Part shown: piece by piece, positions 32,841-33,023 of the stretch | How positions within the stretch are numbered: position 1 is the stretch's first letter | Layout: each line of letters begins with the position of its first letter | Assembly: GCA_964609215.1 (NCBI GenBank) | Contig: CAZSQZ010000009.1 | Coordinates: 16,394-80,393, forward strand | Direction: 5' to 3' | DNA length: 64,000 nucleotides | Source of the DNA: an uncultured Flavobacteriales bacterium | Lineage (GTDB): Bacteria > Bacteroidota > Bacteroidia > Flavobacteriales_D > JABDKJ01 | Made by a program: the position numbers and the translations under genes | Notes under the pieces: model-generated | What the model saw: only the letters and a program-made list of their open reading frames with translations | What the model was told of the DNA's origin: nothing | Database searches by the model: none

Positions 32841-32918
32841 TAACTGAGCTACCTAACCTCAATAGGGGTGGAATCGAACCACCGACCTTCTCGTTTATGC
32901 GAGATGCTCTAACCACTT
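32841..32918 (-). ncRNA. tRNA-like module 2: apparently circularly permuted tRNA-like element (ends in the D-loop, acceptor helix closed by a loop)
   Basis: Minus-strand read, in order. AGTGGTTA-GAGC (D-loop 3' part plus D-stem 3' strand). TCTCG-CATAAA-CGAGA hairpin. AGGTC. GGTGG-TTCGATT-CCACC (canonical T arm, 32867-32883). CCTA-TTGAGGT-TAGG (short closed acceptor-like helix). TA. GCTC-AG (D-stem 5' strand, 32846-49), which can pair with GAGC (32906-09). Hand-folded. Confidence 0.4.
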
Positions 32919-32924
32919 GTGTTA

Positions 32925-33000
32925 CTATATAAAAGTATAGCGCGTTTTCCAATTACGCCACTGTGCCACAAGCACAGACAGGACTCGAACCTGTATAACA
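32925..33000 (-). ncRNA. tRNA-like module 1: T arm + loop-closed acceptor helix + D arm + anticodon-type hairpin
   Basis: Minus-strand read, in order. ACAGG-TTCGAGT-CCTGT (32978-32994). CTGTGC-TTGTG-GCACAG (closed 6-bp helix, 32961-32977). TG. GCGT-AATTGGAAA-ACGC (perfect D arm). G. CTATA-CTTTTA-TATAG. Hand-folded. Confidence 0.4.
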
Positions 33001-33002
33001 TG

Positions 33003-33023
33003 GGATTTATTTTCAGCAAATCC
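33003..33023 (-). ncRNA. extended anticodon-arm-like hairpin with CUGAAAA loop
   Basis: Minus strand: GGATTTG-CTGAAAA-TAAATCC, a 7-bp stem including a terminal G-U and a Phe-GAA-type 7-nt loop. It lies immediately 5' of module 1. Confidence 0.3.

Follow-up and report, generated by a model that had tools for sequence, protein, structure and literature searches.

Two tRNA-like modules with loop-closed acceptor helices in a long structured RNA upstream of an SPFH gene in a Bacteroidota RNA-repair island

In a 64,000-nucleotide (nt) stretch of DNA from an uncultured Flavobacteriales bacterium (the window, i.e. the whole stretch that was analysed), two tRNA-sized modules, A and B, lie on the minus strand (32994-32842), 290-445 nt upstream of a gene for an SPFH/Band-7 protein. 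Both modules are real and strongly conserved, and they belong to a long structured RNA that precedes the SPFH gene in RNA-repair islands of Bacteroidota. As described in an initial annotation of the sequence, each has a T arm, an acceptor helix closed by a loop and D-arm sequence, all present on the minus strand. RNAs of this class have been predicted before: according to Wang et al. 2018 (bioRxiv 10.1101/312249), Burroughs and Aravind 2016 predicted a "band 7-associated tRNA", abbreviated b7a-tRNA, beside genes for Band-7 and RtcB, which "strongly resembles an authentic tRNA", is not validated and sometimes swaps with the Y RNA YrlA. The initial annotation named YrlA as the only bacterial precedent, and this published prediction, as relayed there, is a second one. 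The class is missing from Rfam, and the window represents a variant architecture. The best explanation, to which we give an even chance, is that the modules are tRNA mimics with sealed acceptors in a long operator-controlled RNA that partners an SPFH assembly in RNA repair.

Topology and covariation of the modules

The SPFH protein is a member of a large Bacteroidota "slipin" family, and the comparison set comprised 80 genome loci of this family and eight closer relatives with 58-83% SPFH identity (individual loci are cited by L numbers). Modules preceding the SPFH gene on its own strand, at a distance of 300-700 nt, were found in 77 loci, i.e. in 69 of the 80 and in the eight relatives. Two perfect T arms, 60-105 nt apart and 340-700 nt upstream of the SPFH gene, were present in 69/80 loci, and most of the remaining 11 are contigs with too little upstream sequence; the suggested link to the SPFH gene extends to essentially every locus with enough sequence. 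Moreover, a perfect hairpin of at least 5 base pairs (bp) directly follows 131 of the 169 T arms located at most 750 nt from the SPFH gene, compared with 14 of 62 T arms farther away, which mostly belong to real tRNAs. The exact design of the window, including a module B opened in the D loop, is kept in the eight relatives; within the comparison set, the D-loop-opened second module is confined to this clade and was not found in the other 69 loci.

A covariance model of the T arm, the closed acceptor and the D arm (model R1) gave 175 matches in 83 sources, the best 150 of which were aligned for a covariation test. In this alignment, both sides of the closed acceptor helix change at 7/7 pairs with 92.5% of cells paired, and the covariation score of the whole structure was 0.786, whereas shuffles reached 0.228 and slid controls did not exceed 0.18. 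All aligned modules have U8 and A14. D-loop base 15 matches the base 5' of the T stem of its own module in 139 of the 150 modules (G:C in 90 and A:U in 49; Fisher p ~1e-27, a value inflated by shared ancestry), while agreement with the base preceding the next T stem is limited to 24 of 54 cases (p = 0.75). Because this contrast in the Levitt pair is clear, we conclude that each unit of T arm, closed acceptor and D arm is its own permuted tRNA body. Moreover, the covarying acceptor and the 15:48 pair, which ties each D loop to the T arm of the same module, together support the circularly permuted tRNA fold envisaged in the initial annotation. In such a fold, the T arm would be stacked on a hairpin in place of the acceptor stem and the D arm would contact the T loop of the same module.

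A linear reading, in which the D arm and anticodon arm of one module combine with the T arm of the next, was rejected as the Levitt pair follows the module's own T arm instead. The linear reading is what the Rfam tRNA model detects, its hits (24-42 bits) connecting the D arm of a module with the T arm of the following one; in the window, the hit that links the D arm of A with the T arm of B reaches 24.5 bits against a gathering score of 29, covering model positions 7-64 only. This reading is probably also what was named b7a-tRNA.

The canonical tertiary-contact residues of tRNA (U8, A14, R15:Y48, G18G19 and a T-loop UUCRA) are present, the Levitt pair being A15:U48 in module A and G15:C48 in module B. 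In module B, the D stem can form only between GAGC on the 5' side and GCTC on the 3' side, and this pairing, pointed out in the initial annotation, is confirmed in the sequence. AGUU joined to GGUUA gives a textbook D loop and, therefore, module B corresponds to a tRNA with a break between positions 17 and 18 and a sealed acceptor end. All of its tertiary-contact residues are kept, i.e. U8, A14, G15 with C48, G18G19, A21 and a UUCGA T loop. In an alignment of 13 sequences, the anticodon-like stem of module B covaries at 5/5 pairs and the acceptor closure, which comprises 3-5 pairs, at 2/3 pairs. A model of module B (model R2) scores above 48 bits in two groups only, the clade of the window and a few high-GC metagenome contigs. 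A pattern scan of metagenomes for module B returned mostly adjacent real tRNAs and some high-GC YrlA-like arrays, and no further members of the clade.

Other hallmarks of canonical tRNAs are absent. The modules lack a terminal acceptor stem, ARAGORN called no tRNA in the module stretch, and the canonical 7-nt anticodon loop with U33 and R37 is replaced by loops of 6 nt in the window (CUUUUA and CAUAAA) and of 4-7 nt in its clade. Because of these loop sizes, the modules of the window and its clade are poor anticodon-loop mimics. It is plausible that the RNA cannot be aminoacylated, as was originally suggested. In the wider family (L002-L078, second module), 59 of 138 modules have a canonical 7-nt anticodon loop (U33 in 58/59, R37 in 58/59, and Y32) with 23 different triplets, and the triplets vary even on an identical stem, the stem CTACA/TGTAG occurring 24 times.

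The RNA chain enters and leaves the tRNA-like body at three different sites. In the YrlA-like form, which is the usual first module in the relatives, this site is the anticodon loop; in the usual second module and in module A of the window, it is the junction of the anticodon arm and the variable loop; and in module B, it is the D loop, between positions 17 and 18. All three would be sites at which tRNAs tolerate length variation.

Additional elements flank the modules. A hairpin, P0, occupies the position of the anticodon arm before T arm A and covaries (GAAAATT/AATTTTC in L085 and GATTGTTTAC/GTAAACAATC in L086); at this position, L084 has an anticodon arm that is tRNA-Pro-like. A candidate extra helix downstream of module B would form a pseudoknot with both the acceptor closure and the D stem. 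Its alternatives in relatives, i.e. GGAGGA/TCCTCC (L081), GAGATC/GATCTC (L086) and GTGAGAA/TTCTCAC (L087), are compensatory by eye, though shuffles of the individual sequences gave no significant result. In most of L002-L078, an H-type pseudoknot-like motif (stem, loop, stem, A-rich run and loop complement) directly follows the second module; two of its forms, AGAG-CTCCATCA-CTCT-CAAAAA-TGATG (L013 5690-5725) and GAAG-TACACCG-CTTC-TCAAA-TGGTG, covary. A preQ1-type riboswitch was considered for this motif (AGAG..CATCA..CTCT-TAAAAA-GATG) and rejected, as there was no match in Rfam.

The embedding RNA and its gene neighbourhood

The modules had initially been regarded as stand-alone tRNA-sized RNAs. 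Instead, they are domains of one structured RNA of ~870 nt (~0.9 kb) in the window and ~0.6-0.9 kb in relatives, which is continuous with the 5' leader of the SPFH gene (Table 1). The consensus of the Bacteroidota -7 promoter box is TAnnTTTG; a box of this type precedes the RNA, with CCTTTG at its position in L087 and L088 instead, and transcription is predicted to start near 33461. The operator CGCAA-N5-TTGCG occurs in two copies only in the window, and 23 of 81 loci have it at the equivalent place upstream of the RNA. The two-site layout of the window recurs in L020, with an identical operator before the RNA and before RtcB. Because a common operator precedes both, the RNA-SPFH unit and the RtcB unit are probably co-regulated; plausibly, the WYL protein encoded next to the second copy is the binder of both operators.

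The 3' domain of the RNA is closed by a long-range helix. In the window, this helix has 14 contiguous pairs, a length equalled by 0/1000 shuffles, and helices of 12-16 bp with differing sequences are present in five clade members (relatives L081, L083, L084 and L085), matched by 0-3 of 1000 shuffles. In the clade, the helix ends 36-45 nt before the SPFH ATG and its 3' strand holds a U run. A competing local hairpin, TTCAGA-TGGA-TCTGAA (32617-32602), which is followed by a T run, shares this 3' strand. Hairpin and T run are kept with covariation (TTCAGA/TCTGAA, AACCAG/CTGGTT and AATCAG/CTGATT) and could form a terminator before the SPFH gene. A GCTCCGC box (32628-32622) is also conserved in the clade. 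In the 5' domain, the helix pairs perfectly as ACTGGT/ACCAGT in L085 and L086 when the sequences are read by eye.

The 206-nt insertion in the RNA contains a 7-bp acceptor (GTCTCTT/AAGAGAC), a D-like arm, a perfect T arm (GTCGG-TTCGAAT-CCGAC) and an internal insert of ~126 nt, and is flanked by GTTCTTTAAA repeats. It is 96.6% identical to that of L081, compared with 71-86% for the flanks and 80% for the SPFH gene, and had no match in Rfam, phage genomes or the other fetched loci. The insertion is under very strong constraint or was recently mobile. Two short open reading frames (ORFs) overlap the structured RNA, i.e. a 55-aa ORF with a TTG start in the window (32785-32952, minus strand) and a 53-aa called gene in L081 (7761-7922), and most probably represent false calls within a non-coding RNA.

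The window, part of a metagenome contig, is a low-GC (~35%) chromosome segment that also encodes UvrA, an ECF sigma factor, Rho and Por-secretion-tail proteins; by the similarity of its proteins, it belongs to Bacteroidota. The genes for RtcB, two RlaP proteins, an Rnl2-like ligase and the WYL regulator all lie within 8 kb. Among 70 loci, RtcB is encoded within 6 kb in 40, on the SPFH strand every time, and a WYL gene is divergent from and upstream of the RNA or RtcB in 19. The commonest order is the WYL gene followed, divergently, by the RNA, SPFH and RtcB, sometimes with RlaP thereafter. The constant core across the loci is the RNA-SPFH pair. In L083, L084 and L085, genes for a PrfH-type release factor (Pfam RF-1) and a TPR protein come after RtcB; RtcB-PrfH is a known ribosome-rescue pair and, because this pair is present in these loci, repair modules appear to be exchanged beside the constant RNA-SPFH core.

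Arrays of 3-11 tRNA genes are located at the same island position, between RlaP/RtcB and RNA-SPFH, in L081, L083, L086, L087 and L072. The types across the island arrays are Ser, Cys, Tyr, Pro, Gln, Leu, Glu, His, Phe, Arg and Lys, and the array of L081 includes one tRNA with the anticodon UUA, called by ARAGORN as a stop-codon suppressor. In the window, the gap between tRNA-Tyr and tRNA-Gln (34840-34995, minus strand) contains a tRNA-Pro(UGG)-like gene in which the T loop is split by a 51-nt insertion (GTAGG-TTCGAA-[51 nt]-T-CCTAC); L081 and L083 have an intact tRNA-Pro at the equivalent array site. L087 contains tRNA-like genes with apparent 50-60 nt insertions just 3' of the anticodon loop (~5400-5600 and 5190-5290), e.g. 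a tRNA-Phe-like ACTGAAA + insert + ATCCG; these interrupted tRNAs near RtcB may contain introns. Finally, an 80-aa ORF without a family match lies directly 3' of the SPFH gene (31081-31323, minus strand), with ORFs at the same position in L081, L082 and L124 and a 68-aa gene there in L083.

Table 1. Features of the structured RNA and of the neighbouring genes (positions in the window)
Feature	Positions	Strand	Remarks
Module A, permuted tRNA-Leu-like body	32925-32994	minus	Model R1, 62.4 bits; Rfam YrlA, 28.6 bits; kept in eight relatives
Module A, T arm ACAGG-TTCGAGT-CCTGT	32994-32978	minus	
Module A, closed acceptor CTGTGCT-TGT-GGCACAG	32977-32961	minus	7 bp, 3-nt loop; directly 3' of T arm
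Module A, U8 G9 (TG), then D arm GCG-TAATTGGAAAA-CGC	32958-32942	minus	tRNA-Leu-like
Module A, anticodon-like hairpin CTATA-CTTTTA-TATAG	32940-32925	minus	5 bp, 6-nt loop
Module B, tRNA-like body	32842-32914	minus	Opened between D-loop positions 17 and 18; model R2, 83.9 bits
Module B, 5' D-side strand GGTTAGAGC (GGTTA-GAGC)	32914-32906	minus	
Module B, A26, then anticodon-like hairpin TCTCG-CATAAA-CGAGA	32904-32889	minus	5 bp, 6-nt loop
Module B, variable loop AGGTC	32888-32884	minus	Five bases
Module B, T arm GGTGG-TTCGATT-CCACC	32883-32867	minus	
Module B, closed acceptor CCTA-TTGAGGT-TAGG	32866-32852	minus	Short, 4 pairs
Module B, U8 A9, then 3' D-side strand TA-GCTC-AGTT	32851-32842	minus	
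Hairpin P0, GGATTT-GCTGAAAAT-AAATCC	33003-33023	minus	Anticodon-arm position before T arm A
ACCTC, candidate 3' strand of extra helix	32834-32838	minus	With GAGGT (32860-32856, acceptor-closing loop of module B); suggestive
Palindromic operator TACGCAAATATATTGCGTA	33487-33505	minus	Overlaps -33 region of RNA promoter; conserved in clade
Second operator copy GCGCAATAATTTTGCGT	40067-40083		In 64-nt RtcB/WYL gap; CCTTTG box follows on RtcB strand
Bacteroidota-type -7 promoter box AATATTTG	33469-33476	minus	Conserved in L081, L083, L085, L086
5' hairpin AGCTCCTTGC-AATACG-GCAAGGAGCT	33428-33453	minus	Stem sequence varies, pairing kept, e.g. CACCCCAGC/GCTGGGGT in L083
Insertion with third tRNA-like element, 206 nt	33190-33395	minus	Only in the window's own lineage
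Conserved 5' domain, AACGTTCTTTAAA block and long-range helix GACTGG.../...CAGTAC	33030-33150	minus	Helix around ~90 nt; read from sequences
Long-range helix, 5' strand AAAAAATCAACCTT (AAAAAAUCAACCUU)	32812-32825	minus	Closes ~200-nt 3' domain
Long-range helix, 3' strand AAGGTTGGTTTTTT (AAGGUUGGUUUUUU)	32589-32602	minus	38-51 nt before SPFH start codon
Non-coding stretch, ~1 kb	32552-33577	minus	
SPFH/Band-7 (slipin) gene, 366 aa	31451-32551	minus	Pfam Band_7, E = 3e-21
Rnl2-like ATP-dependent RNA ligase gene	33578-34270	minus	Pfam RNA_ligase, E = 1.3e-17; NCBIfam Rnl2, weak match
Eight-gene tRNA array	34243-35192	minus	Cys, Tyr, Gln, Leu-UAG, Leu-UAA, His, Phe, Arg
RlaP nucleotidyltransferase genes, two	36137-37207 and 37204-37950	minus	Pfam RlaP, E = 2e-25 and 6e-61
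244-aa protein gene	37962-38696	minus	No family match
RtcB RNA ligase gene	38641-40026	minus	Pfam RtcB, E = 1.6e-35
WYL-WCX transcription regulator gene	40091-41140	plus	Divergent from RtcB; Pfam WYL and WCX

Known RNAs and the SPFH partner

No Rfam family covers this RNA, and there was no riboswitch or T-box match. In agreement with the resemblance noted in the initial annotation, the best non-tRNA match is YrlA (RF02553), with a local match of 28.6 bits (E = 0.0005) for module A and 17.3 bits for the second module, while L013 scored 41.3 bits; the gathering score of 69 bits was not reached in the window or L013, nor was there a gathering-level match in 10 related loci. Like YrlA's tRNA-like domain, the modules consist of a T arm, then a loop-closed acceptor and then a D arm, and share with it U8, A14 and the covarying 15:48 Levitt pair; the genes for YrlA likewise belong to repair operons with RtcB (Chen et al. 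2014, PMC4201824; Wang et al. 2018). They differ from YrlA by forming two or three tandem modules, by often keeping a full anticodon arm and by having an SPFH partner gene. In the alignment to the YrlA model, the Ro-binding stem columns are mismatched. The Ro-binding motif GNCGAAN0-1G was not found in the RNA of the window and is not enriched in the family (25/88 loci compared to 19/88 when shuffled). Finally, no TROVE/Ro domain was detected in the neighbouring or Ro-sized ORFs scanned within the window, as also reported initially. Despite a closed acceptor of 7 bp, the YrlA of M. smegmatis is cleaved by RNase P and acquires CCA, and in YrlA, the tRNA-like domain carries modifications made by TruB and DusA (Chen et al. 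2014, PMC4201824).

D-loop-opened modules were also found in the high-GC contigs L090, L103, L111 and L121, which carry long tandem YrlA-like arrays that are rich in the GNCGAA motif and whose tRNA-like domain has its opening in the D loop rather than, like the Rfam YrlA consensus, at the anticodon stem. Because these contigs have Ro-binding motifs, the D-loop permutation is common to some true Y-RNA-like arrays. According to Chen et al. 2014 (PMC4201824), the partial D-loop features of Deinococcus radiodurans Yrn1 are followed by an anticodon-like arm (5 bp, 6-nt loop) and a T arm, i.e. the element order and the odd 6-nt loop are as in module B; however, Yrn1 binds Ro, tethers PNPase and lacks a closed acceptor hairpin followed by a D-stem strand. 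The Rfam Deinococcus_Y_RNA model gave no more than 16 bits in L013.

With b7a-tRNA, the RNA shares a tRNA-like and non-coding character, a position adjoining Band-7/SPFH, a neighbourhood of RtcB and RlaP, and a proposed role, as relayed for b7a-tRNA, as RNA partner of the Band-7 scaffold; the hits of the Rfam tRNA model fit the description as strongly resembling an "authentic tRNA". It differs in that it consists of tandem acceptor-closed permuted units in a 0.6-0.9 kb RNA rather than one linear tRNA and, in the clade of the window, in the D-loop-opened second module. Our literature searches for b7a-tRNA and for SPFH with RtcB and tRNA returned nothing relevant beyond Wang et al. 2018. Compared to the one-sentence description of b7a-tRNA in that source, the structural details reported here may go beyond the published prediction.

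The modules also share features with permuted tRNA genes. In those of Cyanidioschyzon merolae, the 3' part precedes the 5' part, a short linker joins the acceptor strands, and functional tRNAs are made via a circular intermediate. In the modules, the order of the parts and the short acceptor linker are the same, but the anticodon-like loops are non-canonical (6 nt, and 4-7 nt in the clade), the closures are too short, and the hallmarks of functional tRNAs are lacking.

The SPFH protein has no membrane segment. Its structure model (predicted local distance difference test, pLDDT, 79) comprises three beta repeats of five strands each, then an SPFH domain and a long helix (281-344), the latter two as in cage-forming SPFH proteins. 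Foldseek returned E-values of 1e-15 to 1e-10 for the cage- or ring-forming stomatin, HflK/C, prohibitin and erlin and, over longer alignments of 415-469 columns, of ~1e-9 for the major vault protein. The protein is soluble and, on this model, resembles a shortened major vault protein, and it may form a ring or cage. The likeness to the vault lies in the beta repeats, the SPFH "shoulder", the long helix and the pairing of a cage-type SPFH protein with a structured RNA. However, the best folds are stomatin, HflK/C and prohibitin, there are three repeats only, vault RNA is not tRNA-shaped, and the cage is predicted here.

Functional readings of the RNA

If the modules are sealed tRNA mimics that partner the SPFH assembly, RNA damage would act on the common operator, probably bound by the WYL protein, and release both the RtcB unit and the RNA-SPFH unit. 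The RNA would be the cognate partner of a soluble, ring- or cage-forming and vault-like SPFH oligomer, and its non-chargeable tRNA elbows would occupy or recruit tRNA-binding repair enzymes, i.e. RtcB, the RlaP nucleotidyltransferases and the Rnl2-like ligase. Broken tRNAs would then be healed on one platform, in parallel to YrlA with Ro and vault RNA with the vault.

Several observations weigh against this explanation. The ribonucleoprotein role would follow from gene linkage and analogy, and identity with b7a-tRNA from genomic context and the tRNA-model hits that bridge the modules. RtcB is not within 6 kb in 30 of the 70 loci, i.e. the link to RtcB repair is not universal. The folding energy of the modules is not unusual (z = -1.1), a weak thermodynamic signal. 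The covariation check proposed in the initial annotation for homologous SPFH-upstream regions, in which the closed acceptor helix clearly covaries, showed no covariation for the long-range D stem of module B: among the 13 sequences, 3/4 pairs are invariant and the fourth is unpaired in two. Because these three pairs never vary, this stem is supported by conservation and tRNA homology only. Finally, ~36 nt separate the end of the structured RNA from the SPFH start codon, and SPFH has no evident promoter of its own, which suits a cis-acting leader equally well.

Such a leader, in front of SPFH and often also of RtcB, could be a damage sensor or attenuator in which the modules serve as bait, and cleavage or binding of the bait by a tRNA-targeting nuclease or a different tRNA-binding factor would switch the downstream fold between the long-range A-rich/U-rich helix and the local hairpin with a free U run, thereby setting read-through into the SPFH gene; the switch could be reset through religation of the bait by RtcB. 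We regard this as a possible, though less probable, alternative. It accords with the continuity of the RNA with the SPFH 5' leader, with the 12-16 bp helix whose U-run strand ends close to the ATG, with the covarying competing hairpin and T run, and with the canonical anticodon loops of 59/138 family modules, whose 23 triplets are expected of a bait for anticodon nucleases. However, the loops of the window and its clade are non-canonical, Rfam contains no matching riboswitch or T-box, and the alternative folds are candidates read from sequence; moreover, a sensor would be compatible with a ribonucleoprotein role and does not exclude it. Alternatively, an abundant and unchargeable tRNA look-alike might soak up toxins that cleave or modify tRNAs, with SPFH only stabilising or storing the RNA. 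The kept elbow residues (U8, A14, G18G19 and the TTCRA T loop), the closed acceptor and the varying triplets on a fixed stem would suit such a decoy, eight real tRNAs and three types of RNA ligase or nucleotidyltransferase in the island point to tRNA conflict, and a role as competitive inhibitor has been proposed for YrlA in the literature. We nevertheless consider a decoy unlikely, as the 6-nt loops in the window are non-canonical and a decoy needs neither the large conserved 5' and 3' domains nor strict SPFH linkage.

Three further readings carry little weight. RtcB is the ligase of the permuted-tRNA pathway, and the topology of the modules is that of a permuted tRNA gene; they might therefore be precursors of real tRNAs in which RNase P and RNase Z open the acceptor loop and RtcB joins the other ends. 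The processing of the 7-bp closed acceptor of M. smegmatis YrlA speaks for this, but the irregular anticodon-like loops, the short closure of module B (3-5 pairs) and acceptor loops of 3-7 nt without a discriminator or CCA context make it very improbable; in addition, neither a bulge-helix-bulge motif nor a bacterial splicing endonuclease is known, and ordinary tRNAs already come from the neighbouring array. We give just as little credence to an ordinary YrlA with Ro/Rsr encoded elsewhere and incidental SPFH adjacency: YrlA is the best non-tRNA match and D-loop-opened modules occur in the Ro-motif-rich high-GC contigs, but the scores stay far below gathering level, the Ro-binding stem columns and the GNCGAAN0-1G motif are not matched, no TROVE domain was detected in the ORFs of the window that were scanned, and SPFH linkage is near-universal. 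The last of these readings, that the modules are functionless debris of the adjacent tRNA array, i.e. truncated or fused pseudogenes that imitate the unit, has a negligible probability. Adjacent tRNAs can imitate units of T arm, acceptor and D arm, an artefact of which Chen et al. 2014 (PMC4201824) warned; real tRNA-tRNA junctions match R1 at 18-33 bits and R2 at up to 46 bits, and the D arm and loop of module A resemble tRNA-Leu. However, the R1 matches of real junctions have the acceptor helix deleted, their acceptor strands being unpaired, whereas those of the modules are paired and covary at 7/7 pairs; the design is kept in the 77 loci, from several Bacteroidota families and many without a nearby tRNA gene; and module B keeps every conserved D-loop and T-loop residue despite its permutation. 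Acceptor covariation, module B covariation and Levitt pairing contradict debris.

The sensor and the ribonucleoprotein could also be parts of one system, a combination that we consider speculative and rather improbable. An invading tRNA-cleaving nuclease would cut the tRNA look-alikes in the leader, which would free the fold and turn on the repair genes; RtcB would religate the tRNAs as well as the bait, which would shut the system down, and the soluble vault-like SPFH cage would hold the RNA and the enzymes. If true, such a self-resetting bait would represent a novel type of damage sensor based on RNA and, in bacteria, the equivalent of the vault ribonucleoprotein.

Y RNAs and vault RNAs are classic RNAs of still poorly understood function, and the b7a-tRNA prediction, which dates from 2016, is unvalidated. 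For this class, the locus described here and its 77 relatives provide a structure backed by covariation, a likely regulator and operator, and a soluble vault-like protein as the likely partner; moreover, cultured carriers exist, e.g. Flavobacterium columnare, Chitinophaga pinensis and Pedobacter. In total, these observations show that a larger RNA can incorporate a tRNA body through any of three sites (D loop, anticodon loop or variable loop), which is useful for RNA design and for annotating tRNA-like elements that are missed by tRNA finders and Rfam.

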